NCBI GenBank assembly: GCA_003228105.1 | Contig: QGNN01000003.1 | Coordinates: 258-64,257 of the forward strand | Length of the DNA: 64,000 bases | DNA from: Chloroflexota bacterium | GTDB taxonomy: Bacteria; Chloroflexota; Dehalococcoidia; Lucifugimonadales; UBA826 | Direction: 5' to 3' | In this document: positions 10,366-64,000 of the stretch, one piece after another | Numbering within the stretch: position 1 is the first letter of the stretch | Layout of the letters: each line of letters starts with the position of its first letter | Program-made: the position numbers and the translations under genes | Notes under the pieces: model-generated | Databases searched by the model: none | Seen by the model: only the letters and a program-made list of their open reading frames with translations | What the model was told of the DNA's origin: nothing

Positions 10366-11007
10366 TCAGGATTCAAGTCTTACAGCGGTAAAACGGCCTC
10401 TTCTTAGTTCCTGCACTAAATCAGATTCATTCTTTATTTCTTTTTCAAAACTTGTCATACAGGTACCTATTGCACTCACTATGTGAGCGTCACTTCCTCC
10501 TGTTCCTAAATATCCTTTTGCCTTAATCAAAGATTCGGCTTTTTCTCCTTCTCCTGGCCTGTTGGACCCGTTGAGTTGCTCGACGGATTTAACTGTTTCA
10601 AAACCGGTTACACCGCCATCTAAATATTCAGCAAATCCAATTCCTGCTCGGCCTGGGTGGGCTGGAATTGCTATTCCTCCATAGCTGTCACAAATATCAA
10701 CTAGGTTTTGTGCACTCATGTTAACATCTGAGAAATCCAACTCACCGGTAATTTCTTCTGAAATTCCGTAAACGAGGAAATGTCCGGTGTCTGTGTCTAA
10801 TTCAGCGCCTTTTAAAATGATTATTCCGTCATCTGAGGCTAAACTAGCATAGTTTTTATCGTGGTCGAATTGCCTGTGCTCTGTTAAAACAAATCCATCT
10901 ATTGATTTGCCTTTTCTTCGCAGCACATTAACCCATTTTATGTATTGTTCTACCGTTGCTCTGGAATCGTCCGATGCAACTGAGTGAGTGTGTAAATCAA
11001 GGAGCAT
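10366..11007 (-). CDS. PHP-domain metal-dependent phosphoesterase
   Basis: N-terminal DLHTHSVASDDS motif, with later AHPGR and GGSDAH metal-ligand motifs. Confidence 0.8.
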   Translation of the reverse strand: MLLDLHTHSVASDDSRATVEQYIKWVNVLRRKGKSIDGFVLTEHRQFDHDKNYASLASDDGIIILKGAELDTDTGHFLVYGISEEITGELDFSDVNMSAQNLVDICDSYGGIAIPAHPGRAGIGFAEYLDGGVTGFETVKSVEQLNGSNRPGEGEKAESLIKAKGYLGTGGSDAHIVSAIGTCMTSFEKEIKNESDLVQELRRGRFTAVRLES

Positions 11008-11087
11008 AATAGGATTGAATGTTAGGTTAGCACCTTCCTGTAGTCAAGAAATAAATGTATTAAACTTAAGGAAATTGCATCCAGAAG

Positions 11088-11894
11088 ATGCAGAAAACAA
11101 TAAAGTGGGTGATTAATATGGATTTAGGACTGACTGGAAAAATTGCTTTAATAACTGGTGGTAGTAGGGGTTTGGGAAGGGAAAGCGCATTGTCCTTAGC
11201 CAGGGAAGGCGCGAATATTGCTATATGTGGTAGAAGAAAAAAGGTGTTAGAGACGACGGTAAAGGAGATTGAGGAAACTGGAGCAATCTGTGTGGGTATA
11301 GTTGCTGATGTATCTGATACTGGGATGATGGGGGATTTGCATACTTCCGTCGTTGAGGCTCTTGGGCCGATAGACATACTCGTGAATAATGCCGGGGGAA
11401 CTAGATCCAGAGATGATATTAACGGAACCTCTCTAGAAGATTTTAAAGGCACCTTTGATTTAAATGTTTTTGGAGCTTTTGAGTTAATGCAACATGTTAT
11501 ACCGTCTATGAGAAGTAATGCTTGGGGCAGGATTATTAATATTGCTTCTATCTGGGGACGAGAATACGGTGGGAATATAGCTTATATGTCAGCAAAAGCG
11601 GCATTAATTGCTGCCTCTAAACATTCGGCAATTTCCTTGGCTAAAGACGGAATATTGGTTAATTCCATCGCTCCTGGTTCAATTGAACACCCTGGAGGTT
11701 CATGGGAACGTTTTCAAAATGACAATTCAGCTGAAGTTGTAGAAAATTTTATACAGGAAAATCTGCCTCTTGGCAGGTTTGGCTGGCCTGAACCACTGGG
11801 TGATTTGGTTGCCTATCTTGCCTCTGATAGATCTGGACTAATCACCGGTTCATGTATCGTAATCGATGGTGGTCAGAGCGTATCGATGATCTAG
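11088..11894 (+). CDS. SDR oxidoreductase (FabG-like)
   Basis: LITGGSRGLGRE, NNAGG and YMSAKAA (YxxxK). The likely real start is ATG at 11118 (MDLGLTGK). Confidence 0.85.
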   Translation: MQKTIKWVINMDLGLTGKIALITGGSRGLGRESALSLAREGANIAICGRRKKVLETTVKEIEETGAICVGIVADVSDTGMMGDLHTSVVEALGPIDILVNNAGGTRSRDDINGTSLEDFKGTFDLNVFGAFELMQHVIPSMRSNAWGRIINIASIWGREYGGNIAYMSAKAALIAASKHSAISLAKDGILVNSIAPGSIEHPGGSWERFQNDNSAEVVENFIQENLPLGRFGWPEPLGDLVAYLASDRSGLITGSCIVIDGGQSVSMI

Positions 11895-11897
11895 GAT

Positions 11898-12899
11898 TTA
11901 GTTTTTCAAGGATCTTTTAGGGTTAGGATGCTCTAACACTTCAGGGTTGACTAAGTTCTCAGGCATGCTATTTCTGTATACCCTGACGACTTCGCTTGCT
12001 GCTCGTTCTTCTAGCTCAAGTATGGATTCTTGAGAGAAGAAAGCTGTGTGAGGGGTTATTAGTATGTTTTCCAGTTGCATCAAGGGATGATCCCTTGATG
12101 GTTCATTATCCACCATGACATCTAAACCTGCACCACCTATTTTCCCATTCGATAGAGCCTCGTACAAGGCTGCTTCGTCGATCAAAGGGCCTCGCGCTGC
12201 GTTGATTAGGAAGGCATCATCTTTCATTAAATCAAATTGTTTCGGTCCGATCATTTTTTCGGTGCTTGGAGTTAATGGTGCATGAAGTGACACAAAATCC
12301 GAATTCTCCAGTAGTTCCTCAAGACTTACCAATTTTCCACCTGAAGATTCCACTATTTCTTTAGGAGTGAATGGATCAGAGGCCAATATATTTAAGCCGA
12401 AAACAGAGGCTTTTTCTGCTACTGCTTGTCCGATCCGGCCAAATCCTACAATGCCAATAGTTTTACCTCTCAATCTTTTGATACGCATCGTTAAACCCAA
12501 ATGACCCCACCCATCGGATTTTACTGATCGGTCGAATAAGGCTATTTTTCTATTCCAGGTATGTAGCATTGCTAAAACGTGGTCAGACACTTCATCTACG
12601 CAATAATCAGGAACGTAGGTCACCGGTATACCGAGTTCGCTTGCCGTACCCACATCTATATTATCAACACCAACTCCAAATCTTCCTATCGACACACAAT
12701 TTTCTGCGGCTCTAATTACATTCCCGGTAACTTTTGCAAAACATGTCATGATTGCATCCACGTCTCTAGCTAACTCAATCAGAGTATCTTCCTCCCCATC
12801 AGGCGCTACTATAACCTCCGCTCCTGCAGCTTCCAAAACAGCCCTCTCTGGCTCTATTGTCGGCCATACATGATCAGTGATAAGGACTTTCCAACCCAT
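11898..12899 (-). CDS. D-isomer-specific 2-hydroxyacid dehydrogenase (CtBP/PGDH-like)
   Basis: NAD motif GIVGFGRIGQAV, plus INAARGPLID and TPHTAF catalytic-region motifs. Confidence 0.85.
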   Translation of the reverse strand: MGWKVLITDHVWPTIEPERAVLEAAGAEVIVAPDGEEDTLIELARDVDAIMTCFAKVTGNVIRAAENCVSIGRFGVGVDNIDVGTASELGIPVTYVPDYCVDEVSDHVLAMLHTWNRKIALFDRSVKSDGWGHLGLTMRIKRLRGKTIGIVGFGRIGQAVAEKASVFGLNILASDPFTPKEIVESSGGKLVSLEELLENSDFVSLHAPLTPSTEKMIGPKQFDLMKDDAFLINAARGPLIDEAALYEALSNGKIGGAGLDVMVDNEPSRDHPLMQLENILITPHTAFFSQESILELEERAASEVVRVYRNSMPENLVNPEVLEHPNPKRSLKN

Positions 12900-12932
12900 T
12901 TATTTCTCCCTTTCGTTAAGGTTACTTGACAA

Positions 12933-14576
12933 TTAAATTGATGTTAAATCTCTCGGCATCGGATTAAACATGCACCCTTCGACAAAAACTTCGAAGAAAT
13001 CCGGAACAGTTTCCAATTCCAAATGGTCTATGCTCAACACTAACTTTTCTATTTCGATTCTCATTTCGATTGATTTAAGCATCAATATTGCACCTTCGAG
13101 TGAAGCATTTCCTACCTTTTCAATCTTTTTTAGGGGAAAATTGGCTATAAAGCCGATGTCCCTAGCATTTGATGAATTTATGTAGTTTGCGAAGCCTCCT
13201 GCCAGGTACAGTTTGGATATTTCACCAATCGGTGCACCGAAATGGCGCAACGCCAAATATTGACCACAGTAGTTGGCAGATTTCGCCTGAGCCAGGGCAC
13301 TAATGTCAGATCGGGACAGAGCCATATTTGCTTCTTCGGAAAATATGTAGGCATTATCTCCATTTGAGTAAACTCCAAGTTCGGTCATCAAATTAGATTT
13401 TCTCAGTTCGGCTAATAAATCAATCAACCCCGATCCACAGATCCCTTGGATACCGGCACCTCCTATAGTGTCAATCTCCAAAATACCGTCTCGAATTTTA
13501 ACGGATTCAATAGCCCCTTCATACCCAGGCATACCGTACGTTATGTCGCCACCCTCAAAGGCTGGTCCAGCAGGGCAGGAGGCTGCGACCATTTTATGTC
13601 GAGTTCCTATCACAACTTCAGTGTTGGTTCCTATATCCACTAACATTATAGGATTTTCGGATTCTTCAGCCGTTATCGCCAGTAAGTCCGCTGCTACATC
13701 TGCACCTACGTGAGACCCAATTATAGGTCCACTATAGATTCGAGCTTGAGGGAATATTCGTAGACCAAGTTCCTTTGCACTTATATTAATAGCAGTGGAT
13801 TCTCGTGAACCGGATTCCATATCATGTTGGATAATCGATTTGTATGGTTTTTCGCCCACGGATTGTACATTTACACCAAAAAGTATGTCCCTCATTGTAG
13901 TGTTTCCGACTAGTACAGCATCATAAATTCTTCTTCGATGAATTTTATGTTCTCTAAGCATTTCACCTATTTCATAATTGATCGATGACAGCAATACTTT
14001 TTGCAATTCACCTTTATTTGGACCACCATCATAGGAAATCCTGTTCATTACATCAGAACCCCCAAATCTTTGTGGGTTTTCAAAAGAGGAAGTGATTAAA
14101 ATGTCCCCGCTTTCAAGATCTACGATGCTTAATACTATGGTGGTGGTCCCAATATCCCCCGCCAACCCTAAAATGTGACCCTGATATCTGTCCGAATCCA
14201 TTTCCTCTATAAAGACCCTGTCATCTCTTTTGGTAGCAACGCTATCTAATTTAACAGGCCTCTTCACTCCTGAGGTTAAAATTTTCGGTTGTCTTCTTAG
14301 TGTGCTGAATTCAACATTTGATGTTAAATCTTCGACTACAGCTTGGCAGGCCAACCTGTAATTACCTCTTAAAAAAGTTTCCTCTTGGGTTTGTTGATTT
14401 AGAGAAGCCATCCCCTTTTTTATTTCCACCACACACTCATGGCATTCACCGTTTCTACCACAAGCAGTAGGAACTCTAATTTTGAGGTCATCGGCGTAAT
14501 CAAATATCGTTTTATGAGGGCCTATTGGATACTCTTTGCCATCGGCAAAAACTGGAGACATTGGCGATACCTTCAA
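12933..14576 (-). CDS. corrinoid reductive-activation protein (RamA/RACE-like): 2Fe-2S ferredoxin fused to an ASKHA ATPase
   Basis: N-terminal plant-type ferredoxin cysteines (CGRNGECHEC...LACQ) followed by a roughly 400-aa actin/sugar-kinase-like domain (GDIGTTT, VDIGTNTE). ATG at 14561 has a GAAGG Shine-Dalgarno (SD) sequence and is the likely start. Confidence 0.8.
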   Translation of the reverse strand: MKVSPMSPVFADGKEYPIGPHKTIFDYADDLKIRVPTACGRNGECHECVVEIKKGMASLNQQTQEETFLRGNYRLACQAVVEDLTSNVEFSTLRRQPKILTSGVKRPVKLDSVATKRDDRVFIEEMDSDRYQGHILGLAGDIGTTTIVLSIVDLESGDILITSSFENPQRFGGSDVMNRISYDGGPNKGELQKVLLSSINYEIGEMLREHKIHRRRIYDAVLVGNTTMRDILFGVNVQSVGEKPYKSIIQHDMESGSRESTAINISAKELGLRIFPQARIYSGPIIGSHVGADVAADLLAITAEESENPIMLVDIGTNTEVVIGTRHKMVAASCPAGPAFEGGDITYGMPGYEGAIESVKIRDGILEIDTIGGAGIQGICGSGLIDLLAELRKSNLMTELGVYSNGDNAYIFSEEANMALSRSDISALAQAKSANYCGQYLALRHFGAPIGEISKLYLAGGFANYINSSNARDIGFIANFPLKKIEKVGNASLEGAILMLKSIEMRIEIEKLVLSIDHLELETVPDFFEVFVEGCMFNPMPRDLTSI

Positions 14577-14639
14577 ATTATATTTGGTTAAGTGAATTCT
14601 ACAGTGCGCAAAAAAAAGATTGTGCTATTAGCCTTCAGG

Positions 14640-14885
14640 TTAATTGCTGGGCTCCCACGCCGAACGATAATCTAGGTCATCACTTCCAAGACAAAGGTAC
14701 AATTTTCCTACGGTGCCTGGTCTATCTTGGTTTCGGCAACTAAATTTCGCGGTGCACCCGTCCTCAGAATTTTTGTACGGGCATCTCCATGTGGACACTT
14801 CCGAGACTGTATCTGAGATAGACTTGAAAATTGATTCAAGCTTTCCTAAACTCTTCTTATATTTTTCTTGGTTGACTGGTTCCAT
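14640..14885 (-). CDS. small Cys-containing hypothetical protein
   Basis: 81-aa ORF inside the corrinoid operon with 5 Cys residues (WRCPY..DGCTAKFSCRN..LCLG). Weak SD. No family recognised. Confidence 0.4.
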   Translation of the reverse strand: MEPVNQEKYKKSLGKLESIFKSISDTVSEVSTWRCPYKNSEDGCTAKFSCRNQDRPGTVGKLYLCLGSDDLDYRSAWEPSN

Positions 14886-14922
14886 ATTTTTGTCTCATTG
14901 GCCACAAAACATTTGATAGGCT

Positions 14923-15681
14923 TTAATCAACCGGACTTATTGAAAGCTCCGCGTCGGGGCGCATAAAAGTTTTGGCTAAATCCACACAGGACATAGCATC
15001 CTTTCCGTAACCATCCGCACCCATGTCATCGGCAAATTCCTGGGAAAGAGGGGCTCCTCCAACCATAATTTTCACCACTTCTCGCATCTCAGCTTCTTCG
15101 AATGCGTCGATAGTTCTACCCATATTAGGCATAGTGGTTGTTAATAATGCAGACATTCCTAAAACCCCAGCTTCATTTTCCTCAACTGCTTCTATGAATT
15201 CCTCTGGGGATGTGTCTACACCCAAATCTATAACAGTAAAACCGGCTCCACTCAACATCATGATACAAAGATTTTTCCCGATATCGTGTAGATCCCCTTT
15301 CACTGTTCCCATTATCACAGTACCAGCAGGCTCTATGCCTGATTCGGATAGGATTGGCTCGACGTGAGCCATACCGGCTTTCATAGCTCTTGCAGCAACA
15401 AGGACTTCTGGTACGAAGATCAGATTGTCTCTGAATTTCACACCTACAATCGCCATTCCTGCTATAAGCCCATCATCTAAAATTGTATTGGCTGAAAACC
15501 CAGCTTCTAAGGCCTCTTTGGTCAATTGGTCAACTCTGTTATTGTCTCCTTTTATCAAAGAAACCGATATGTCTTGCATCAGAGGATCTGCTTCGTTCCA
15601 CAGGTTTCTAATGTGCTGCTGTTCTGCGGGGCTGGTTACATACCCTAACTCCGCCTCCAAATCTTCATTAATTACTGGCAT
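14923..15681 (-). CDS. cobalamin-binding corrinoid protein (MtbC/MtsB/MetH B12-domain-like)
   Basis: B12-binding DxHxxG (GDLHDIGKN), SALLTT and VGGAP motifs, preceded by a helical cap domain. Confidence 0.85.
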   Translation of the reverse strand: MPVINEDLEAELGYVTSPAEQQHIRNLWNEADPLMQDISVSLIKGDNNRVDQLTKEALEAGFSANTILDDGLIAGMAIVGVKFRDNLIFVPEVLVAARAMKAGMAHVEPILSESGIEPAGTVIMGTVKGDLHDIGKNLCIMMLSGAGFTVIDLGVDTSPEEFIEAVEENEAGVLGMSALLTTTMPNMGRTIDAFEEAEMREVVKIMVGGAPLSQEFADDMGADGYGKDAMSCVDLAKTFMRPDAELSISPVD

Positions 15682-15788
15682 ATGGTAAACGAACCTCTGA
15701 TATTTATTGAATCATGTTTCATTAGAAGATAAACATAAATGGCATCTGAAAGGAGCAATTATACGACTAAATTACAGTCAGACATAGG

Positions 15789-16826
15789 TTATCCATGCCT
15801 TTCAGCGGTCCAATCTTTAATGGCCAAAGGAATCTCCATGAGGTTTTCTAGTTTGGTCGCTAATGGCACTGCGCATTCTGGCCCAATCATCTGGACTCCA
15901 GCCTCCAAACATTTGTAGACCTCTTGCCTTACTTCCTCAGGACCTCTGGCGTACAAAGTTTCCGGATTATTAATATTTCCTACAAGAGTGATTCCTCCAT
16001 TTACAGCATCCATAGCTGCTTGAGGGTCATTTTTCGAATCGAAATGAAAAGAGGCCATTCCTGTTTTGGCAATATATGGCATTCTGTCGAGGGTTTTTCC
16101 GCATATGTGCAAAATGAGAGGTGCTTCCAATGCATCTACCATTTCCGTGTGAATATCTTGCAAAAATTCTTTGTAATATTCCCCGCTTACTAGATCACCT
16201 GTGGCGTGATCAGGGAATGTCAGCGCATCAGCTCCTGCATCTATCTGGGCTTGTCCGAAAAGTATGGAAATCTCCTTTAATTTTTCTAAAGCCTTTTTTG
16301 TTTCATCTGGATTGTCCACTGTGCCCAACAAAAAACTCTCCACGCCAAAGACATGGTAGGCGAGAGTCCAGGGACCCATCGTTTTTCCAATAATAGCTAC
16401 TTCATCCCCCAACTCATCTTTCAGCATTCTGATTGAGTCAGTGATAGCCTTCATGTCTCGATGCTCGAGTATGCCCGCCGGTATCTTTACATCATCAGCG
16501 GACTTCCAAATGGGGTTATACATTCGCACTGTGGGCCAGTTGTCTTTTTCTTCCCATTGCATTTCACATCCTAGAGCGGATGACTCTTGTATTATGCTGA
16601 AATAGGGCGAAACAGAATCGAAACCTAATTCCGTATACCCAGTAGCAGCTAACCTGGCTGCCATTTCTCCATCCTGGCATGCGTAAGGGAAAGGAGCATC
16701 TACCAGATCCATTAATTCCACTGTTGCGACATTGGTTGGATTCACAGCCGGGGTTCTGTCGACAAGTTTACCGGCTAAAGCGTTCATCACCCGTTCTTTG
16801 GGTGACATCGTTTCTTGATAAGGCAT
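15789..16826 (-). CDS. URO-D-fold MtaA/MtbA/MtsA-like zinc methyltransferase
   Basis: Uroporphyrinogen-decarboxylase-fold protein carrying the MtaA-type zinc ligand pattern H-x-C (LILHICG) and a distal Cys (GPECAV). Strong AAGGAG SD. Confidence 0.8.
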   Translation of the reverse strand: MPYQETMSPKERVMNALAGKLVDRTPAVNPTNVATVELMDLVDAPFPYACQDGEMAARLAATGYTELGFDSVSPYFSIIQESSALGCEMQWEEKDNWPTVRMYNPIWKSADDVKIPAGILEHRDMKAITDSIRMLKDELGDEVAIIGKTMGPWTLAYHVFGVESFLLGTVDNPDETKKALEKLKEISILFGQAQIDAGADALTFPDHATGDLVSGEYYKEFLQDIHTEMVDALEAPLILHICGKTLDRMPYIAKTGMASFHFDSKNDPQAAMDAVNGGITLVGNINNPETLYARGPEEVRQEVYKCLEAGVQMIGPECAVPLATKLENLMEIPLAIKDWTAERHG

Positions 16827-16845
16827 TTCTCAAACGCTCCTTGAT

Positions 16846-17520
16846 TTATGTTTGACTGAAACCTAAGGTATTAGTGGTCATTTGGCCTCTCATGGATTCT
16901 GCTTGCATCATCGTTTCTATGCTACTTACATTCCGGGAATACGGTAGCAGAATCCTTAACAATTCATCATGATTCAGGCGGCACTCGAAAGCTACTTCCT
17001 GATCTCCCATTTTGTCCATTTCACCGTATTTGGAAAACCCTGCGATAATCATCCGCAGACGCATAGCCGGATTTTTCGCTTCTCCACTAGCAGATATCTG
17101 GTAGTGCCGAGTGTTGTCTCTCTCAAACCCTTCTGCTTTGATGATTAAATTGGATTTACTATCCTTTATCTCCATTGCGGCAGTGTTTGTGGCATATTCC
17201 GGATCTTTTCCAACGGCTTGGGATAATAGAAATCGGACTGGCCTACTATGAATTAAACCGCACTCGAATTTGGCTTGGTTATGCGTCTCAGGCACTGGAA
17301 TCATGCCTCCCAGGGATACTAATAAACCTCGAATTTCTTCGATCCGTTTTTCTACGCCAGAGTTGGTGCTAAAGGACCACACTGTGAAGATAGAATTTTT
17401 CACATATAGGCCTATAGATATTTCATTGAATCTTTTGTCTGTAGGAATTAATTCCAGACAGTGGCCATATTTTGCTATGACATCTTTTGGTCTAGGGCCA
17501 TCGTAGGAGACAAGTTTCAT
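16846..17520 (-). CDS. hypothetical protein (224 aa) in the corrinoid operon
   Basis: ATG at 17520 has an AAGGAG SD and starts 2 nt after the upstream stop; the track start at 17592 would overlap that gene by 70 nt. Internal repeat-like motif: KFECGLIHSRPVRFLL / AFECRLNHDELLRILL. No family recognised. Confidence 0.6.
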   Translation of the reverse strand: MKLVSYDGPRPKDVIAKYGHCLELIPTDKRFNEISIGLYVKNSIFTVWSFSTNSGVEKRIEEIRGLLVSLGGMIPVPETHNQAKFECGLIHSRPVRFLLSQAVGKDPEYATNTAAMEIKDSKSNLIIKAEGFERDNTRHYQISASGEAKNPAMRLRMIIAGFSKYGEMDKMGDQEVAFECRLNHDELLRILLPYSRNVSSIETMMQAESMRGQMTTNTLGFSQT

Positions 17521-17522
17521 GT

Positions 17523-18425
17523 TTATACTCCTTGGGTTTCTTCCAATAATTTTGAAAATGCGGAAATATGATCTGGTCCGGTTCCACAACACCCCCCAAT
17601 GATATTGACTCCAATTTCCTTTAACTTCATAAATCTCTCCGCCATGTAGTTTGGTGGTTCAGGGTAGAGTATTTCTCCAGCTTTGAGAGACGGGATACCA
17701 GCGTTTGAATGTACTAATAGTGGAGAGTCAGTAGCATCTCTCATCATGGATGCTATCTCTATCATGTTATCTATTCCGTTTCCGCAATTGGTTCCCACAA
17801 TATCGGCCCCAGATTTAACCAATTCGACTGCGGCCTGTTCAGGTGTTACGCCCATCATTGTAAAATAGCCTCTTGGACCTTTATCAAAGGTCATAGTGGA
17901 TATTACAGTTAGATTGGTGTTTTCTTTAGCCGCTCGGATAGCTATGGACGCTTCATCGAGAGCTGTCATAGTTTCTATAACTATTCCATCAGCACCGCCT
18001 TGCTCTAAGGATGTCACCTGACTACAAAAGGCCTGATACAAATCTTCTTTTGAGACAGCCCCCAAAGGCTCTAAGAATTCACCACTTGGACCCACAGAGC
18101 CACATACGAAGGTCCCTGGCTTCGACTGGCTTTTTGCATGCTCAGCTGCGAGCCTGTTAAATTCGTCTACTTTGTCTCCAAATCCGTAATGGCTTTGCCG
18201 AAAGTTGGTGCCACCAGAAGAATTAGTGAGAACAATGTCAGATCCTGCATCAAAGTAGGATTTTGCCATTCTTCGGACAATTTCAGGGTGGCTTACGTTG
18301 AACTCTTCAGGACATCCACCCGGCTCCAGGCCGTTTTGTTGCAAAAAAGTTCCGGTCCCTCCATCTGAAACCAGCACCTCTCCATTCGATAGTCGATCCA
18401 GTATGCCTCGGGATTTTAAATTCAT
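17523..18425 (-). CDS. homocysteine S-methyltransferase domain protein (MetH N-terminal/BHMT-like)
   Basis: Stand-alone 300-aa Hcy-binding barrel with zinc ligands in VGTNCGNG and IIGGCCGTGPDHI. Confidence 0.85.
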   Translation of the reverse strand: MNLKSRGILDRLSNGEVLVSDGGTGTFLQQNGLEPGGCPEEFNVSHPEIVRRMAKSYFDAGSDIVLTNSSGGTNFRQSHYGFGDKVDEFNRLAAEHAKSQSKPGTFVCGSVGPSGEFLEPLGAVSKEDLYQAFCSQVTSLEQGGADGIVIETMTALDEASIAIRAAKENTNLTVISTMTFDKGPRGYFTMMGVTPEQAAVELVKSGADIVGTNCGNGIDNMIEIASMMRDATDSPLLVHSNAGIPSLKAGEILYPEPPNYMAERFMKLKEIGVNIIGGCCGTGPDHISAFSKLLEETQGV

Positions 18426-18440
18426 TTTGTTTTTAACCTT

Positions 18441-18782
18441 CTAATTCGATTCTATCCATCCGTCGATGGATCCTGCACTGTGGGTTCTAGACCCATTTTT
18501 ATGTAAATCCCTCAACTTGGCCACAAAATTCTGCGGCATTCCTTTATTGTAACGATCTGCTACAGACTTCAAGACATTATCCAACTCTCCAAACATTTCA
18601 AAATATTCGCCCCATTCCCATGCGTCAAGATATTCATCCGAACCGTAGCTGCCTTCCATCATCGAAATTGCATCTACAGCCTCTTGGAACCTCGAATCCA
18701 GCGGTAGAGATTGAGTCTCAGAGTTATTGGTTATCTGCACCTGTACTGGAATTTCTTTCCAATACATTAATCGTACTTTCAA
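18441..18782 (-). CDS. small conserved protein, first gene of the corrinoid operon
   Basis: 113-aa ORF (MYWKEIPVQVQ...). From memory it resembles the roughly 100-aa 'virulence factor' Pfam domain that co-occurs with MetH-type domains. ATG at 18767 is the likely start. Confidence 0.45.
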   Translation of the reverse strand: MKVRLMYWKEIPVQVQITNNSETQSLPLDSRFQEAVDAISMMEGSYGSDEYLDAWEWGEYFEMFGELDNVLKSVADRYNKGMPQNFVAKLRDLHKNGSRTHSAGSIDGWIESN

Positions 18783-18923
18783 AATTCTAATCCTAGAAGA
18801 ACATAATTACAGTCATTATAGTTCCATAGACAAACATACAGAAGCTACGGTTTCCACATACCTATTTCTGATTGGTATGTTATAACTCAATAATTCTTAA
18901 TAGGATTCTAAAAGGAGAGCACT

Positions 18924-22837: not shown

Positions 22838-23896
22838 CTATCCCGTGACGTGTATTGTAGGATCAGTGTCTGAAGGAGTGTAAACTTCCCCAATTATTTG
22901 ATTACTTAATGTGCCTGCCTCAGACAGCAATTGTTGTAATTTATCTGCCTTATCTGGGTTGACTGAAATCAATAGTCCTCCAGAGGTCTGGGCATCGGAT
23001 AAAAGGATTTTATCGTTTTCTGAGATTTCTTTATCCCACAACACCGTCGATTTTAGAGAAGCTAGATTCCGAATAGTTCCTCCCGGTGCTATTCCTTGTT
23101 CCAATAGATCGGTTGTGCCCTCTATCACCGGTACTTTGGACTTATAAATCCGGGCACCTAGCCCACTGCCCTCCATCATTTCTCTCAGATGCCCCAACAA
23201 TCCAAAACCTGTAACGTCAGAGCAAGCGTTTACGCCAACTGAAATCATACATTCGGAGGCGGATTTGTTAAGCGCAGCCATAATTGCAACAGCATTTTCA
23301 AGAACCTCAGCAGCTACTTTTTCTTGTTTTCCGGCAGTAGTTATTATCCCAGTACCTATAGGCTTTGTTAGCAGCAAAAGATCTCCAGATTTGGAGGTGC
23401 TGTTTGCCGTTTGTGAGCCAGGGTTTACTATTCCTGTTACTGAAAGTCCATATTTCGGTTCAGCATCAACCACACTGTGTCCTCCGGCTATTACTATGCC
23501 GGCTTCGAGTGCTTTTGAGGCGCCACCTTTAAGGATTTCCCCCAGAATCGACATGTCTAAATCTGAAGGGAAACCAACCACGTTTAATGCCGCGATGGGT
23601 TTGGCTCCCATTGCATAGACGTCACTTAGGGAGTTAGCAGCAGCTATTTGTCCGAAGATAAATGGGTCATCCACAATCGGGGGAAAAAAATCGACTGTTA
23701 AAACGACAGCCAAATCATCGTTTAACTTGTAAACGGCGGCGTCATCACTAGTCTTTGTTCCAACTAGTAGGTTTGGATGTGTCATATCTGGCAGCTGGCT
23801 CAGAACTTGAGCCAGGTCGTCTGGACTTAGTTTAGACGCTCAACCTGCGCACGATGCAAGTTCTGTGAGCCTAACTTTTTCATGTTGATGCTGCAT
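22838..23896 (-). CDS. selD: selenide, water dikinase (selenophosphate synthetase), Sec-containing
   Basis: The track ORF (22838..23785) lacks the catalytic N-terminus. Reading upstream in frame gives MQHQHEKVRLTELASCAG-UGA-ASKLSPDDLAQVLSQLPD, which matches the SelD G-[C/U]-G-C-K-ISP loop. UGA at 23840..23842 falls on the catalytic Cys position. ATG at 23896. Confidence 0.85.
23795..23815 (-). promoter_or_regulatory. candidate bacterial SECIS stem-loop in selD mRNA
   Basis: Perfect 8-bp stem CUGGCUCA/UGAGCCAG with 5-nt loop AGUUC. It starts 25 nt after the UGA, and a loop G lies about 34 nt downstream of the UGA. Confidence 0.55.
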
Positions 23897-33929: not shown

Positions 33930-35051
33930 ATGCATCGAAGGGGGACTAAATTGTTAGAGCAGTTCAAAGTGCAACCGGAAGACCAAGTTAGAGTAACGGA
34001 AGAAAATCTTAGAAAAACAGTGGAGGCTGTATTTTCAAAGATGGGGCTTGACGACTCTGATTCAGCGTTGGGAGCTGATGTTTTGGTAAAGGCAGATATG
34101 AGAGGTGTGGACACTCATGGTGTCTCCAATATGCTGCGGTCTTATGTCACAGGGTATGGGAATGGGGAACTTAATTCTCATCCTAACTGGACTATAACAA
34201 GAGAAACCCCAGCCACCGCAAATATAGATGGCGATAGAGGCTTGGGGATAATTGTAACCCCGAAAGCAATGGATATAGCGATTGAAAAGGCCAAGAATGT
34301 GGGTATGGGAGTTGTGACTATTCATAATTCAAGGCACCTTGGTATGGCTTCATATCACGCTTTGAAGGCAGTAGAAAACGACATGATAGGCATGTGTATG
34401 ACATCGTGCCCTCCCGGGGTTTTACCGACCTTCGGAGCAGAACCTGTTTTGGGTACGAATCCCATAGCGATTGCGGCTCCTGCTGATAAAGAGGCTCCCT
34501 TTGTGTTTGATGCTGCCATGAGCGCTGTTGCCGGTAATAAACTAGGCCTTGCTAGAAGAAACGGGACGCAATTATTAGCGGGGTGGGTGGCCGATCATGA
34601 TGGTAGCCCAATTATGGAAGAAGTGGATCCTCCAACACCGGGCTATGAAGGTTCTGCTTCATCCTATTTGCTTCCCGTTGGAGGGACACGGGAATTAGGA
34701 TCGCATAAAGGGTATGGGATGATGTGTCTCGTTGACATATTAGGAGGCATTTTGACAGGAGGCGGGTATGGTATGAGCCCTGGCCGACCAAATTTTGGAC
34801 ATTATGTAGCCGCCTACAACATCGAAGCTTTCATGGACACGAAAGAATTTAAAAGAACCATGGATGAATGGATTAACATGCTGAATTCTTCCAAACCAGC
34901 ACCTGGTCATGATCGAGTTATGTATCCCGGCCAACCGGAGCATGAGGAGGTTATTGAAAGAACCGAAAAAGGTATACCTCTACATTATGAGGTTGTCGAC
35001 TGGTTTAAAGATATATGCGGCGAATTGTCTATTCCGTTTTCCCTGGTTTAG
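33930..35051 (+). CDS. Ldh_2-family malate/L-lactate/sulfolactate-type dehydrogenase
   Basis: ADMRGVDTHGV, GTNPIAIAAP and HKGYGM blocks typical of the Ldh_2 family. Confidence 0.85.
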   Translation: MHRRGTKLLEQFKVQPEDQVRVTEENLRKTVEAVFSKMGLDDSDSALGADVLVKADMRGVDTHGVSNMLRSYVTGYGNGELNSHPNWTITRETPATANIDGDRGLGIIVTPKAMDIAIEKAKNVGMGVVTIHNSRHLGMASYHALKAVENDMIGMCMTSCPPGVLPTFGAEPVLGTNPIAIAAPADKEAPFVFDAAMSAVAGNKLGLARRNGTQLLAGWVADHDGSPIMEEVDPPTPGYEGSASSYLLPVGGTRELGSHKGYGMMCLVDILGGILTGGGYGMSPGRPNFGHYVAAYNIEAFMDTKEFKRTMDEWINMLNSSKPAPGHDRVMYPGQPEHEEVIERTEKGIPLHYEVVDWFKDICGELSIPFSLV

Positions 35052-35056
35052 TGTAG

Positions 35057-35099
35057 ATATTCTCGTCAGGGCTAGATAAACGAGCCCTGACGAGAATAT
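35057..35099. terminator. bidirectional hairpin between convergent genes
   Basis: Perfect 17-bp inverted repeat ATATTCTCGTCAGGGCT / AGCCCTGACGAGAATAT with a 9-nt loop, followed by TTTT on the plus strand. Confidence 0.7.
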
Positions 35100-35100
35100 T

Positions 35101-36714
35101 TTAATAATCCCTAAAAGGATTAGGCATTGGTCCAACTGGTACTTCTATCAATGTCGGAGCTTCTATACTCAGCGACTCTTGCACGGCTTTCCCTAGTTCA
35201 AGTGCTCCGCCTTCGACTCTTACACCCCTCACACCAAAAGCTTCAGCGAGCTTCATGAAATCAGGGTTATGAACTTCAGCCCCATATTCTCTTCCATTAA
35301 ACATGTTGATCTGATCTCTCATTACGTTTCCGTAAGCGTTATCGTTAAATACCACAGCAACCACGTTGATTTGGTGTTTTGCAGCCGTGGCTAACTCCTG
35401 GACATTGAACATAAATCCACCATCCCCACAAACAACCACAACTGCCTTATCTGGTTGTGCAACTTTAGCCCCTAGTGCGGTTGGATAAGCATATCCCAGA
35501 TTACCGTAATAGGAGGAGGTAATGTAGGTCCTTGGTTCATAAACTTCAAATTTATTTCTACTGTAATACCCAATTTGAGTCATACCTGAGATGAATATTC
35601 CATCATCCGGCATGACGCTTCGAATGGCTTTCGTGAAAGATTCTTGCGGTTCAATTACCGTGCCGGGATTAAATCTTTCGGCCTTTAGTTTTGTTAGCTC
35701 TTCTTCTCTACTTTCACGAGGCGGCATTACGTTTTTCAAACCATTTAAAATCTCTGTGAGAGTCTTTTTGGCGTCGCCATTGACCCCTTCTGTGTTGTCA
35801 TAATTACGACCTATTTCTTCATCGTCTATGTCAATCTGGAGGACTTTTTGACCTGTCAATTGTTGGTTGTTTAGGAACCTCGTCCCAACGGCCACAACCA
35901 AGTCATAGTCTTGGATTCTATTTTCAAAAAAAGTGTCGTTTTTGAATCGAAAACTACCGATTGATAGGTAGCTTCTGTCTGAAATAGCTCCTCTACCTTC
36001 ACCGGTTGCTATAACAGGGGCTTGTAAAAATTCCGCTAAAGATGTTAGTTCCTTTGATGCTTCACCAGATATTCCCCCCCCCCCGGCCCATATAAGAGGG
36101 TTTTTTGCATTGGAGATAAGATCAACCCCCCGGCTTACGCTTTCTTTACTAGCCGCAGGCCTCTCATATTTTCCAGCTTCCAACAAGTTAATATCAGCTG
36201 TGTCGGAAAGGGTTTCTGGGGGTATTTCTATTTGGACTGGCCTTGGTCTCCCTGTTTGTAGTTGCTCAAAGGCTTCATGCACGGCCTCTGGTATCTCAGC
36301 AGGATCCAGTATAAGTTTTTGATGTTTGGTAATGGGTTTTATTGTTTCAATTTGACCTTTTATTTCGTGGAGCATTCCTCTTTCAAGGTTAATGTGATCC
36401 CTCTCAATCTGACCTGACACAACTAAGATAGGAGACGATGCTGAATATGCTGTACCTATTCCTGCACTGGCATTTTGAAGCCCTGGCCCTGGCACAACCA
36501 ATGCTGTACCTATACCTCCCCCTGCCCGGGAATACCCATCAGCCATATAGGTTGTAGCCTGTTCATGTCTGGTATTAATAAACCGTATTCCTGGCTCTTT
36601 TGCCAACCCATCAAGGAGATGGTACAGCTGTACCCCCGGCAAACCAAAAATTACTCTCACTCCTTCTCGGTAAAGTGATTTGGCGAGTGCTTCGCCCCCG
36701 GTCATTTTTGTCAT
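35101..36714 (-). CDS. thiamine-diphosphate-dependent enzyme (acetolactate synthase-like)
   Basis: N-terminal GGEALAKSL..GV..IFGLPG and TPP-binding motif GDGGFMFN...NN. 537 aa. Confidence 0.85.
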   Translation of the reverse strand: MTKMTGGEALAKSLYREGVRVIFGLPGVQLYHLLDGLAKEPGIRFINTRHEQATTYMADGYSRAGGGIGTALVVPGPGLQNASAGIGTAYSASSPILVVSGQIERDHINLERGMLHEIKGQIETIKPITKHQKLILDPAEIPEAVHEAFEQLQTGRPRPVQIEIPPETLSDTADINLLEAGKYERPAASKESVSRGVDLISNAKNPLIWAGGGGISGEASKELTSLAEFLQAPVIATGEGRGAISDRSYLSIGSFRFKNDTFFENRIQDYDLVVAVGTRFLNNQQLTGQKVLQIDIDDEEIGRNYDNTEGVNGDAKKTLTEILNGLKNVMPPRESREEELTKLKAERFNPGTVIEPQESFTKAIRSVMPDDGIFISGMTQIGYYSRNKFEVYEPRTYITSSYYGNLGYAYPTALGAKVAQPDKAVVVVCGDGGFMFNVQELATAAKHQINVVAVVFNDNAYGNVMRDQINMFNGREYGAEVHNPDFMKLAEAFGVRGVRVEGGALELGKAVQESLSIEAPTLIEVPVGPMPNPFRDY

Positions 36715-36725
36715 GAATGTTTCTC

Positions 36726-37895
36726 CTAGTTCTGGGTTTTGTTTTTGTAGCTTTCTGTCGCCTTGCTGAGAGATACGGTTTTTAATGCTTGTAAGTTATC
36801 CCTATTGTCTTCAGACCATTTTTGAGATGTCACCAAATTATCAAGCGAGCCTTGGAAATGGGGCATGACGTATCGGGCTATTAATTCATAACTGTGTCTT
36901 ACTTGTTCTCTAGTGCCCCATTCTGTAGCCTGAATCATGAAACCACCAAATCCTCCACTTTGCTCGCCTAGTTCTTTGATTTTTTCTATTAGATCGTCTG
37001 GGGTTCCTACACACCAAGCCCCGTTATCAGCCATGTAGTCTATTATTTTGTCTTTGGGTCCGTCGTAATCAAAAGGTGTTCCCATAGTTTGGTGGAAATA
37101 ATCGTATTGGTATGCGGCTGACTTTTCTCTTGCTTGGTCCATTGCTTCTTTTTTGGTGTCAGCCAAATGAACGTGTAAGACGATCCTCCAGTCAAGTCTG
37201 TTTACAGTTTGACCGTATTCTTCTGCTGTATCTTCTGCGATTTTCCAGAAGTCCCCCAAATTAGAAGCTACGCTTCCGCCTCTTATGACACTAACAGAAA
37301 GTACTCCCAAACCATGCTTTCCAGCTGCAATCATCCCTGAAGGTGATTGTGCTGCTGCAACGGCCATCGGAAAATGCGGTTCTGTATAGGGTCTCAAGTG
37401 TATTAAGGCTTCCCTCAAAGTGAACCAGTCAGATTCATAGGTTATCGGCTCTGTTTCTGTAAGAAGTCTTTTTATTATACCTATTGCTTCGTCCATTCGA
37501 GGTCTTTGTAAAGATGGTTCGATGCCAAGTGCATAGGCATCGGAAACCAAAGCGCCTGGACCTACACCCAGCATCACCCTCCCTCGGGTCAGGTGATCCA
37601 ATAGAACCATACGATTTGTAAGCATTAGTGGGTGGTGATACGGCAAACTGGCAACTCCTGTGCCTAGTTTGATGTGTTTGGTTCTTTCTGCTGCGACTCC
37701 TATAAATACCTCAGGAGAAGATATAGTCTCCCATCCCGCACTGTGATGCTCACCTATCCAAGCCTCGTCGAAGCCTAGGTGATCCAACCATTGTATTGTC
37801 TCTAGGTCCCTTTCTAGGGCGAGAGTTGGGTTGTCTCCTAGCGAGTGAAAAGGTGCTAGGAAAATCCCAAACTTCATTCGATTTGGTAAGGTCAT
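36726..37895 (-). CDS. LLM-class (luciferase-like) flavin-dependent oxidoreductase
   Basis: MKFGIF..., GFDEAWIGEHH block, TIM-barrel-sized 389 aa. Confidence 0.85.
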   Translation of the reverse strand: MTLPNRMKFGIFLAPFHSLGDNPTLALERDLETIQWLDHLGFDEAWIGEHHSAGWETISSPEVFIGVAAERTKHIKLGTGVASLPYHHPLMLTNRMVLLDHLTRGRVMLGVGPGALVSDAYALGIEPSLQRPRMDEAIGIIKRLLTETEPITYESDWFTLREALIHLRPYTEPHFPMAVAAAQSPSGMIAAGKHGLGVLSVSVIRGGSVASNLGDFWKIAEDTAEEYGQTVNRLDWRIVLHVHLADTKKEAMDQAREKSAAYQYDYFHQTMGTPFDYDGPKDKIIDYMADNGAWCVGTPDDLIEKIKELGEQSGGFGGFMIQATEWGTREQVRHSYELIARYVMPHFQGSLDNLVTSQKWSEDNRDNLQALKTVSLSKATESYKNKTQN

Positions 37896-62670: not shown

Positions 62671-64000
62671 CTAATTTTGTAGGCTATATGCTATGGAGGC
62701 TATTAAAGTATCATCGTCACTCTGCAGTACCGTTCGAAGATCAAATATGACCGCGTCATCTTCAATTCTAGGAACTACAGGGCTGGTTGCAGTTCTAATT
62801 TTCAATGCAAAATTCTCAGGATTCTTTACTGTTAATTGAATTCCAAATGAATCCATCGTTTCTCCCGGCAAACTACCACCACCGATCGTCGACTTTGTTC
62901 CAATTACTTTTGCTGAATACAGGTCACTGCTAGGGATTTTGGTAGATATATTGTGAGCCCTTGTACGGAGATCATCCAATTCAGCCGATATCATCTGCCA
63001 GACAGGGATTTTGTTTTGAGCCTCTTCTTTAAGGTAGTGAATCAACGTGGTAGTCAATGCAGCCAAATTCATTTTGTCTATTCTAAAAGCTCTGGCTAAA
63101 GGATGATTCGATAGTTTCTCTATATAGCTTTTCCTACCTATAACTATTCCTGCCTGAGGCCCACCTAATAATTTATCTCCTGAAAAGAAGCATAAATCAG
63201 CTCCTGCCGCTATGCTTTCCTGAGGCCGTGGTTCTGGCGCTAGACCATATTTGGTTGTATCCAATAATGAGCCACTACCCACATCGTGTAGAACAGGAAT
63301 TCCCTTGCTGGTCCCTAGGTTTGAAAGGTCCGAAATTGAAGGGGTTGCCGTGAATCCAATTATCTTGAAATTGCTCGAATGTATAGAGAGAATTACTCCA
63401 GTATCTTCATTTAATTCCCTTTCATAATCCATCACATAGGTTCTGTTAGTAGTGCCGACTTCAGTCAGAATTGCGCCACTTTGCTTTAAAACATCTGGTA
63501 TTCGGAAACCGCCACCGATCTCCACCGCTTCAGACCGTGAAACTATTACCTCTTTCCCTAACGCCAGTGCTGAAAGCCCCAGCATTATAGCTGCAGCATT
63601 ATTGTTGACCACAAACCCTGCCTCAGCTCCAGTTAGACTAGATAGCAGTTGGGAAATCCTCGCTTGCCTAGATCCTCGCTTTCCAGAACCTAGTTCTAAT
63701 TCCAAATCGCTGTAGGTTTTAGAAGAATCAACAGCTGCCTCCATACTTTCAGTACTTAAAGGAGCACGCCCGAGGTTGGTATGAATGACTACGCCGGTTG
63801 CATTTATAACGGTTCTGGGCCAATGGGACCAGTTTCTCTTTACGTGATCTGAGACTTGGTTGGATATTTCCAATATTGTTGGAATTTCTGATTCACTATC
63901 AACGGTTGACCTTATATGACTTAATTGTTCTCTTATTAGATCTGTTACGGCTTCTGCTGAAAACTCGGTCATCAATTCGGAAATTCGCGTGTCTGAAAGC
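62671..64000 (-). CDS. selA: L-seryl-tRNA(Sec) selenium transferase, probably truncated by the window edge
   Basis: The FSGDKLLGGPQAG PLP-lysine block and VGTTNRT are family-typical. The frame stays open upstream of the track start (63975) to position 64000 (..LSDTRISEL-MTEF), so the true N-terminus probably lies outside the window. Confidence 0.9.
   Translation of the reverse strand, partial: LSDTRISELMTEFSAEAVTDLIREQLSHIRSTVDSESEIPTILEISNQVSDHVKRNWSHWPRTVINATGVVIHTNLGRAPLSTESMEAAVDSSKTYSDLELELGSGKRGSRQARISQLLSSLTGAEAGFVVNNNAAAIMLGLSALALGKEVIVSRSEAVEIGGGFRIPDVLKQSGAILTEVGTTNRTYVMDYERELNEDTGVILSIHSSNFKIIGFTATPSISDLSNLGTSKGIPVLHDVGSGSLLDTTKYGLAPEPRPQESIAAGADLCFFSGDKLLGGPQAGIVIGRKSYIEKLSNHPLARAFRIDKMNLAALTTTLIHYLKEEAQNKIPVWQMISAELDDLRTRAHNISTKIPSSDLYSAKVIGTKSTIGGGSLPGETMDSFGIQLTVKNPENFALKIRTATSPVVPRIEDDAVIFDLRTVLQSDDDTLIASIAYSLQN

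Follow-up and report, generated by a model that had tools for sequence, protein, structure and literature searches.

Corrinoid methyl transfer in marine SAR202 bacteria: a conserved four-gene module beside a split MetH-type homocysteine methyltransferase

Introduction

An operon in the DNA of a marine bacterium raises the question of where a corrinoid protein obtains its methyl groups when it is encoded together with a stand-alone homocysteine methyltransferase and an activase, but with no pterin-binding methyltransferase. The operon lies on the minus strand of a 64,000-nt stretch of Chloroflexota DNA (contig QGNN01000003.1); the whole stretch is called the window below, and coordinates are window positions unless stated otherwise. 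In the order of transcription, the operon encodes a small protein (g1), a homocysteine methyltransferase (g2), a protein without family match (g3), an enzyme of the uroporphyrinogen decarboxylase (URO-D) fold (g4), a corrinoid protein (g5), a small cysteine-rich protein (g6), an activase of the RACo type (g7) and, probably, a dehydrogenase (g8).

The host population belongs to marine SAR202 (Dehalococcoidia, Chloroflexota); near-identical contigs, among them a 290-kb scaffold and the metagenome-assembled genome (MAG) record GCA_963577525.1, were found in marine metagenomes, and related genome loci carry SAR202 or Dehalococcoidia titles. In the dark ocean, few bacterial groups are more abundant than SAR202.

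A first-pass annotation of the window had proposed a MetH-like methionine synthase with a methyl donor other than methyl-tetrahydrofolate (methyl-THF). The comparison of related loci reported here places g3, g4, g5 and g7 in a module of invariant order, beside which a further methyltransferase is exchanged between lineages. On these sequence comparisons, the most economical reading would be that g3 and the MtaA-like g4 load the corrinoid from a non-folate donor and that SAR202 hands the methyl group directly to homocysteine; it is advanced tentatively, with somewhat less than an even chance of being right.

Comparative analysis of related loci

A metagenome scan with distant members of the g3 family yielded 80 loci, which came from soil, peat, lake and ocean samples. 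The loci were annotated with phmmer by using the proteins of the window and those of one locus (L024) as queries; module counts refer to loci with enough sequence, and one locus (L055) was checked by hand. The g3-like gene (g3 itself at 16846–17520, minus strand, as all genes of the operon) was followed by a URO-D gene (g4, 15789–16826) in 41 of 41 loci, by a gene for a corrinoid protein (g5, 14923–15681) in 36 of 36 and by a RACo gene (g7, 12933–14576) in 28 of 28, and three further look-ups concurred with an invariant order of g3, URO-D, corrinoid protein and RACo. A single URO-D gene is present in the operon and in each of the 41 related loci. The module ranges over SAR202, other Chloroflexota, Gemmatimonadota, Terriglobia and Rhodospirillales from ocean, soil, peat and lakes.

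The only interruption of the g3/URO-D junction was seen in loci L016–L019, in which a toxin–antitoxin-like pair (DUF433 and DUF5615) lies between the two genes at about 10730–11610 (locus coordinates). A possible exception to the module rule is a subgroup of g3-like genes (P0312; L025, 8001–8651; L026, 4576–5226) that does not stand beside a URO-D gene and is placed after an oligopeptide/opine-type ATP-binding cassette transporter and before a Methyltransf_21 gene.

The variable part is the third methyltransferase, which is either pterin-binding or of the homocysteine type (SAR202 and a small number of others); some loci have both. It was tallied in the 19 loci with at least 8.5 kb of downstream sequence. 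A pterin-binding methyltransferase (PF00809; best NCBIfam match of the methyl-THF:corrinoid protein type) occurs in 15 of these long loci, four of which additionally hold a homocysteine methyltransferase and a PF13769 protein; two have the homocysteine methyltransferase only, and two have neither enzyme. An invariant module with an exchanged third methyltransferase is thus what came of the gene-neighbourhood comparison that the first-pass annotation had called for.

Operons with only the homocysteine enzyme were found in three settings. In SAR202 lineages, the eight-gene order and the flanking synteny are preserved down to a g3 identity of 43 %; in large-genome Chloroflexi, the toxin–antitoxin pair is inserted; and loci L036, L069 and L076 have a different gene order. 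The counterparts of g4 and g2 (17523–18425) are the sole two methyltransferases in such operons. On a short marine contig (L108), a homocysteine methyltransferase of the g2 type, g3, URO-D and a pterin-binding methyltransferase stand head to tail.

In the SAR202 operon itself, in the 64-kb window and in its flanks, no gene for MttB (PF06253), MtaB, MtmB or a pterin-binding (PF00809) protein was found, which for the window agrees with the first-pass annotation. This check drew on Pfam annotation precomputed for contigs on which exactly these proteins are encoded and covered the entire window and several kilobases past each end. No PF01717-type catalytic domain (core MetE, MesA-D) is present in the window, and no operon protein or neighbour matches PF07796 (DUF1638).

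The clusters of the pterin type are accompanied by a divergent GntR/FCD regulator (30 loci), by PurU (nine loci) and, between RACo and the pterin-binding methyltransferase, by an MTHFR+DUF5981 protein (nine loci). The last of these is a fusion of 513–550 aa that joins MTHFR (PF02219) and "MTHFR C-terminal" (PF12225) domains, as in L093 (14358–15968), L065 (4877–6478) and L031 (12584–14236). LipA is among the recurrent neighbours of the module. Genes of the aspartate family adjoin it in unrelated lineages: a threonine synthase in L016 (7741–8922; 550 bits, above cutoff) and an aspartokinase in L024 (14650–15873) and L076 (15367–16779). A kinase of the APH family lies near the module in 15 loci (e.g., L056, 5051–6070; L093, 8108–9112). 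Its likeness to methylthioribose kinase (MtnK) is weak (61–67 bits against a cutoff of 275, over the N-terminal 140 residues only); this may point to methionine salvage, or it may be fortuitous.

Sequence analysis of the module and its homocysteine methyltransferase

The MtaA-like enzyme: g4 (345 aa) matches the URO-D family (E 5e-66) and exceeds the curated cutoffs of the MtaA/CmuA family (TIGR01463, 248 bits, cutoff 235; PRK06252, 262 bits, cutoff 244). HemE was rejected as an identity, the hemE model giving no more than 78 bits where its cutoff is 303, so that the MtaA-type assignment of the first-pass annotation stands. The protein is not an equivalog of MtaA or MtbA, which use coenzyme M as acceptor (MtaA_Meth, 230 bits, cutoff 400; MtbA, 206 bits, cutoff 600). 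It is about 28 % identical to MtaA of M. mazei (4AY7, E 4.5e-46), the usual distance among MtaA, MtbA and MtsA (PMC10418091). The zinc motif H240-x-C242...C318 aligns with the ligand motifs of 4AY7 and is invariant in 58 of 58 relatives; g4 is accordingly annotated here as a putative MtaA-like zinc methyltransferase of the MtaA/CmuA family. A tblastn search of a plasmid collection, made to reach CmuA on pCMU01, returned URO-D proteins of 26 % identity at best. The exact g4 protein is indexed in 42 blocks of a public assembly collection, and close homologues occur in thousands.

Could g4, with g3, be a methyl-THF:corrinoid methyltransferase of the URO-D fold that replaces the pterin-binding domain and completes a folate-dependent methionine synthase? 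The operon has no PF00809 gene, the threonine synthase and aspartokinase neighbours would fit a housekeeping role in methionine synthesis, and MtsF, of the same MT2 family as MtaA, has been reported to prefer methyl-tetrahydromethanopterin as donor (bioRxiv 10.1101/548461). We nevertheless regard this as quite improbable because g4 would be redundant in most relatives: an orthologous URO-D protein (64 % identical in L024) stands beside a canonical pterin-binding methyltransferase in 15 of the 19 long loci, and likewise in L108. The strictly kept zinc site of the thiol type would, moreover, not be needed for N5-methyl chemistry.

The homocysteine methyltransferase: g2 (300 aa) matches PF02574 (E 6e-60), and its sequence is that of a stand-alone, MtgE-like zinc enzyme of the MetH type. 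The predicted ligands, C214 in NCG and C279/C280 in GGCCG, are invariant in 18 of 18 homologues. The best PDB match is the homocysteine domain of T. maritima MetH (1Q7M, 2e-49, 172 bits), compared with 3e-23 (86 bits) for betaine–homocysteine methyltransferase (BHMT) and 1e-8 (39 bits) for YagD, which is of the S-methylmethionine (SMM) type. Its NCBIfam scores lie below cutoff for PRK07534 ("betaine-homocysteine S-methyltransferase", 244 bits, cutoff 338), for the YitJ-type bifunctional enzyme (239 bits) and for PRK09485 (73 bits, cutoff 215).

That g2 is a corrinoid-independent enzyme of the BHMT or SMM type, merely co-located with a corrinoid system unrelated to methionine, had been named in the first-pass annotation as the case that would overturn its proposal. 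The PRK07534 and YitJ-type names, the best in NCBIfam although below cutoff, would suit such an enzyme, as would the homocysteine methyltransferases of some pterin-type clusters, which are more similar to YitJ/MmuM. However, g2 is far nearer to the MetH domain than to BHMT or YagD and consists solely of the 300-aa barrel; it is translationally coupled to g3 and has been retained in the operon across deep SAR202 divergence. Alphaproteobacterial proteins of the PRK07534 type are, by genetics, the MtgE module of split MetH (PMC12478193, PMC5764234). Mere co-location is therefore scarcely credible.

The corrinoid protein: g5 (252 aa) comprises a B12 cap (PF02607, B12-binding_2) and a Rossmann B12-binding domain (PF02310). 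Its DLHDIG motif, of the form DxHxxG, is invariant in 48 of 48 relatives, which marks it as a predicted His-on corrinoid carrier. The best NCBIfam match, MtgC_2, reaches 207 bits and stays under its cutoff of 370.

The activase pair: g7 (547 aa as full ORF, 542 aa from the gene-caller start) combines a 2Fe-2S ferredoxin domain (Fer2) with RACo_middle and RACo_C_ter domains of an ASKHA ATPase and matches RACo structures in the PDB (3ZYY, 3.7e-66; 4C1N, 9e-61). The small cysteine-rich ORF g6 (14640–14885, 81 aa) has four cysteine residues and no family match. It proved to be a real, conserved gene, although it is skipped by public gene callers in SAR202 contigs (L001–L004, 11942–12187): homologues are called as genes for 79–86 aa in other lineages, and 86-aa ORFs of other, distant Chloroflexi are 58–63 % identical to it and keep all four cysteine residues. 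In many loci, a g6 homologue lies between the corrinoid protein and RACo. In L024, a RACo of 650 aa carries an N-terminal extension that is 35 % identical to g6 (E 2e-15), so that g6 and the activase form one protein in other lineages. g6 is thus the putative accessory module of RACo, and the two proteins are predicted to form an ATP-driven activase by which Co(II) is reduced back to Co(I).

The new family: g3 has 224 aa from the ATG chosen by public gene callers (the longest ORF, from a GTG, has 248 aa). Neither g3 nor ten distant members of its family match Pfam or NCBIfam even at E 10, and its identity as DUF1638 or as any other known family was rejected on this ground. Homologues (490 close and 216 representative ones, every one annotated "hypothetical") were found in Chloroflexota, Rhodospirillales, Terriglobia and Gemmatimonadota MAGs, and no g3-like gene was found in the plasmid collection. 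The sequence is made of two halves related by tandem duplication (hhalign comparison of one with the other, probability 97.4 %, E 1e-11), and each half carries an FxCGxxH motif; C87, H91, C180 and H184 are invariant in 89–90 of 90 sequences. Together with D185, which belongs to the same conserved constellation, this Cys2His2 set is probably a metal site. An AlphaFold2 model (pLDDT 81, pTM 0.77) had no match in the PDB by Foldseek (best E 0.015, TM 0.15), and a search of PDB sequences gave no relative apart from spurious designed-ankyrin matches at residues ~160–210. This helix-rich stretch (HDxLxxLLLxxxxNV) also spuriously matches the giant repeat proteins P0304 and P0375, which are not homologues. 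The last 25 residues are strongly conserved, yet predicted to be disordered; they were considered as a marker of the acceptor partner and rejected, since the type of tail tracks lineage and not the homocysteine or pterin type of cluster. g3 defines a new protein family that is an obligate neighbour of the URO-D gene.

The order of the module mirrors sets of MT1, MT2, corrinoid protein and activase, and g3 might accordingly be the donor-side methyltransferase itself, a small zinc enzyme of a new kind that would correspond to MtaB, with g4 as MT2 like MtaA and the module as a complete MtaB/MtaC/MtaA-like system, to which the homocysteine or pterin-binding methyltransferases would be additions. 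The invariant Cys2His2(+Asp) constellation suggests a metal site, and g4 resembles MT2 enzymes most. Members of the g3 family have, however, only ~215–225 aa and no TIM-barrel-like prediction, and no structural relative of g3 supports catalysis. To our knowledge, all MT1 enzymes differ from g3 in size and in their TIM-barrel fold. There would also be three methyltransferases per operon, and the thiol acceptor of g4 would be left unexplained. This assignment is improbable.

Direction of methyl transfer

In the reading preferred here, the operon would be a methyl-transfer system of an aerobic marine SAR202 bacterium with the corrinoid protein as its "hub". g4 with g3 would act as the donor-side enzyme (MT1) and transfer the methyl group of a non-folate compound X to Co(I)-g5; g2 would then pass it from CH3-Co(III)-g5 to homocysteine, yielding methionine. 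Elsewhere, in the majority of lineages, this donor module would deliver to THF through the pterin-binding methyltransferase, often followed by MTHFR. With an exchangeable acceptor enzyme (for THF, homocysteine or both), every type of cluster would be self-sufficient. MtgB-MtgC-MtgD/MtgE and CmuAB are organised on the same principle.

This reading is favoured because g3, URO-D, corrinoid protein and RACo are invariant while the other methyltransferase is swapped. A corrinoid system needs one donor and one acceptor enzyme, and with g2 as the acceptor, g4 would fall to the donor side. Every part keeps its catalytic residues, invariant across relatives, and the 64 % identity of g4 across cluster types fits a single shared function. 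The regulator, the MTHFR+DUF5981 protein and PurU of the pterin-type clusters form, by analogy, the pattern of demethylation or one-carbon (C1) oxidation operons. MtaA-like enzymes of the MT2 family have a donor-side precedent in MtsA and MtpA, which act on methyl sulfides (bioRxiv 10.1101/548461), and TIGR01463 also takes in the chloromethane enzyme. That one corrinoid protein serves methionine synthesis and demethylation has a precedent among aerobes in MtgBCDE (PMC12478193).

By homology, the first candidates for X may be methyl-sulfur compounds (methanethiol, dimethyl sulfide (DMS), methylmercaptopropionate (MMPA) or sulfonium compounds) and methyl halides, with methanol and methoxy compounds also conceivable. 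Since the same orthologue serves the THF-type clusters, molecules in which the methyl group sits on a good leaving group (sulfonium compounds, methyl halides, methanol, aryl methyl ethers) would be thermodynamically easier donors than simple thioethers. This ranking is derived from established energetics.

Several points weigh against such a donor side and keep our confidence below even. The direction of transfer is only predicted. Most of the close relatives of g4 that have been characterised methylate thiols on the acceptor side, and transfer from a simple thioether to THF is thermodynamically uphill, which fits the pterin-type clusters badly. The packing of L108 indicates that the URO-D enzyme can coexist with a complete split MetH, which makes a trans-encoded pterin-binding methyltransferase plausible in SAR202. 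Further, the threonine synthase and aspartokinase genes point to a possible housekeeping function in biosynthesis, neither a transporter nor a substrate-specific catabolic gene was found to be conserved near the module across the loci, and the role of g3 as a partner subunit is deduced from adjacency, its fold being unrecognisable.

The same observations bear on an ordinary split MetH whose MtgD-like folate subunit is encoded elsewhere in the SAR202 genome. Methyl-THF would then be the donor for two branches, and g4 with g3 would form a second acceptor branch that methylates a thiol or selenol; sulfide, selenide and a small thiol were considered as acceptors. Most relatives have a pterin-binding methyltransferase, often with MTHFR, beside the same module, and L108 holds the homocysteine enzyme, g3, URO-D and pterin enzyme together. 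g4 belongs to a clade of thiol-methylating MT2 enzymes and keeps their His-Cys-Cys zinc site. Transfer from methyl-THF to a thiol is the thermodynamically favoured direction. The genes of split MetH are dispersed in roseobacters (PMC12478193); a selenocysteine (Sec)-containing SelD and SelA are encoded in the window, and a link between Mlp clusters and the chemistry of methyl selenides has been drawn (PMC10418091).

Against this stands the fact that a donor enzyme would have to be encoded in trans for every operon with only the homocysteine enzyme, of which there are three independent arrangements. The pterin-type clusters, with GntR/FCD and PurU in their surroundings, look catabolic, and the invariant element is URO-D with g3 and not the homocysteine methyltransferase. 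We know of no corrinoid-dependent thiol methylation in aerobes other than MetH. On balance, a split MetH with a second thiol branch is unlikely, though to be taken seriously.

The proposal of the first-pass annotation, a non-folate donor that enters through the MtaA-like enzyme or one of the unassigned ORFs or both, thus remains the most economical on the comparative data. It has to be qualified: with a pterin-binding methyltransferase beside the module in 15 of the 19 long loci, often with MTHFR, and also in L108, folate is normally part of the world of this system.

A bolder version of the donor-side assignment would see in the module an unrecognised, widespread enzyme of aerobes that strips the methyl group from an environmental C1 compound, such as a methylated sulfur compound or a methyl halide, with SAR202 making methionine in a bypass of methyl-folate and g3 as a new metal-binding fold that substrate activation requires. 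In this full form, the proposal is doubtful.

Comparison with known systems

The operon belongs with the corrinoid three-component methyltransferases and the split MetH or MtgBCDE-type systems. Split MetH with RamA-like reactivases, which the first-pass annotation had mentioned, has indeed been described: Phaeobacter inhibens has PGA1_c13370, PGA1_c13350 and PGA1_c16040 with RamA-like and DUF1638 proteins, and MtgB, C, D and E of Ruegeria pomeroyi form the MtgBCDE system (PMC5764234, PMC12478193). As in these systems, the operon encodes a PF02574 enzyme with a Cys3 zinc site, a stand-alone cap+B12 protein with DxHxxG motif and a RamA/RACo-like, ATP-dependent activase, and the hosts are aerobes; the corrinoid protein would likewise be the hub that connects a demethylase for the substrate with the branches to methionine and folate, and MetF and a pterin-binding methyltransferase adjoin the module in relatives of the SAR202 operon. 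In contrast to MtgBCDE, the operon and the window contain no MttB-family MtgB, no pterin-binding MtgD (PF00809) and no DUF1638 activase partner, and g5 scores below the cutoffs of the MtgC models. In their place are the MtaA-like enzyme of the URO-D fold, g3 and the Cys4 partner of RACo, in a host of the Chloroflexota. Judged by sequence, the known parts would together make the split methionine synthase with RamA-type reactivation that Phaeobacter and Ruegeria have (PMC5764234, PMC12478193), minus the pterin subunit, MtgB and DUF1638.

The Methanosarcina systems MtsA/MtsB, MtpA/MtpC and MtsD/F/H (bioRxiv 10.1101/548461) resemble the proposed SAR202 pathway in their donor-side MT2-family enzyme with a zinc-binding His-Cys-Cys site, their methyl-sulfur donor and their thiol acceptor. 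In SAR202, however, the acceptor would be homocysteine, reached through a PF02574 enzyme, and not coenzyme M; the bacterium is aerobic, g3 is an additional obligatory component, and methyl-sulfur compounds are candidate substrates only.

The chloromethane system of Methylobacterium and Hyphomicrobium comprises CmuA/CmuB with MetF2, FolD and PurU (PMC3621897; family model TIGR01463). Like the pathway proposed for the pterin-type relatives, it is an aerobic corrinoid demethylation with a donor methyltransferase of the MtaA/CmuA family and an acceptor pterin-binding methyltransferase, and it shares with these relatives the MTHFR and PurU neighbours. CmuA fuses the methyltransferase and corrinoid domains, whereas g4 and g5 are separate genes; the Cmu system is not known to include RACo, g3 or a homocysteine methyltransferase, and the SAR202 operon has no CmuB-like pterin-binding methyltransferase.

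Type 1 mlp clusters, described by Kountz and Balskus from obligate anaerobes only (PMC10418091), contain at least two Mlps (Mlp2 and Mlp3) with a corrinoid protein plus a protein of the Ram/RACE type, and a link to methyl-sulfur/selenium chemistry and methionine has been proposed for mlp clusters. The operon has one Mlp besides g3 and an enzyme of PF02574 and is found in aerobic hosts; with a single Mlp it falls outside this class. The core methionine synthases MesA/B/C (PMC7857596) also make methionine from a methylated corrinoid protein, with methyl-folate not being the immediate donor, but their homocysteine enzyme is of the MetE type (PF01717), their donors are MtrA or the corrinoid iron–sulfur protein, and they occur in anaerobes; the enzyme of the SAR202 operon is of the MetH type (PF02574).

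Operon boundaries and surroundings

All seven ORFs that the first-pass annotation had assigned to the operon are real, and their coordinates and Pfam domain content agree with its parts list. They are co-oriented and tightly packed. The gaps between genes had been given as 15 to about 107 nt; the upper limit of 107 nt is correct, and the lower one is 2 nt. A divergent hydrolase gene borders the operon upstream and a convergent short-chain dehydrogenase/reductase gene downstream.

The seven genes most likely have to be extended by an eighth, g8 (11898–12899), which starts 33 nt downstream of RACo; a D-2-hydroxyacid dehydrogenase directly follows RACo in all SAR202 and other Chloroflexi relatives, so that the transcription unit probably comprises eight genes (11898–18782) with g8 as the last. 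In L016, the g8 gene overlaps RACo by 4 nt, and a dehydrogenase of this type recurs near the module in other phyla. The protein (333 aa; PF02826 and PF00389) is similar to SerA and to glyoxylate/hydroxypyruvate reductases, with scores below cutoff for both phosphoglycerate dehydrogenase (252 bits) and glyoxylate reductase (226 bits). Its substrate may be the product left after demethylation, or it may have a place in serine-linked C1 metabolism.

The first gene, g1 (18441–18782), encodes a PF13769 ("Virulence_fact") protein of 113 aa (E 1e-15), for which no sequence relative was found in the PDB; its homologue adjoins the homocysteine or the pterin-binding methyltransferase in related loci. 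The 141-nt divergent intergenic stretch upstream of it (18783–18923) is the presumed promoter region. No Rfam riboswitch (SAM or B12) was found upstream of or within the operon at gathering score or at E<=1, and a scan for sigma-70 promoter and terminator consensus sequences gave results not above shuffled expectation.

SelD is encoded at 22838–23896 (minus strand); the ORF, listed from 23785, extends upstream through an in-frame TGA, and its translation reads MQHQHEKVRLTELASCAG*ASKLSPDDL.... The TGA lies at the catalytic Cys/Sec position, and SelD is therefore a selenoprotein here. SelA is encoded at 62671–63975, and in L110, a relative from SAR202 with a streamlined genome, the genes for SelD and ArgS lie immediately before the operon. 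At 15–25 kb from the operon of the window stands a set of genes characteristic of oxidative metabolism in SAR202 (33930–37895; an Ldh_2 family dehydrogenase, a thiamine pyrophosphate enzyme, a luciferase-like monooxygenase and a polysaccharide deacetylase), and no link between the two was found.

Conclusions

In the literature searched, no description was found of this operon in SAR202 or of the four-gene module. The first-pass annotation had called the system the best candidate for an undescribed one in the window; this holds for the URO-D/g3 module, whereas the split MetH part had already been described. What appears new is a corrinoid protein and activase hard-wired to an MtaA-like zinc enzyme and g3, and two protein families without annotation (g3 and g6) in a phylogenetically broad module of four genes.

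If the donor-side reading is right, the module would be a candidate for the aerobic turnover of DMS or methanethiol, or of methyl halides independently of cmuA; the existence of a cobalamin-dependent "DMS methyltransferase" in aerobes was postulated as early as 1993, and by 2019 the enzyme had yet to be identified (PMC6548844). It would be a third aerobic route of corrinoid demethylation, beside Cmu and MtgBCD, and would give a function to g3 and g6. Even the conservative reading, a split MetH with an extra branch that methylates a thiol, would bring something new, namely a second methylation in aerobes that depends on cobalamin. Should methionine come from a non-folate donor, models of B12 demand, methyl cycling and methionine supply in SAR202 would change.

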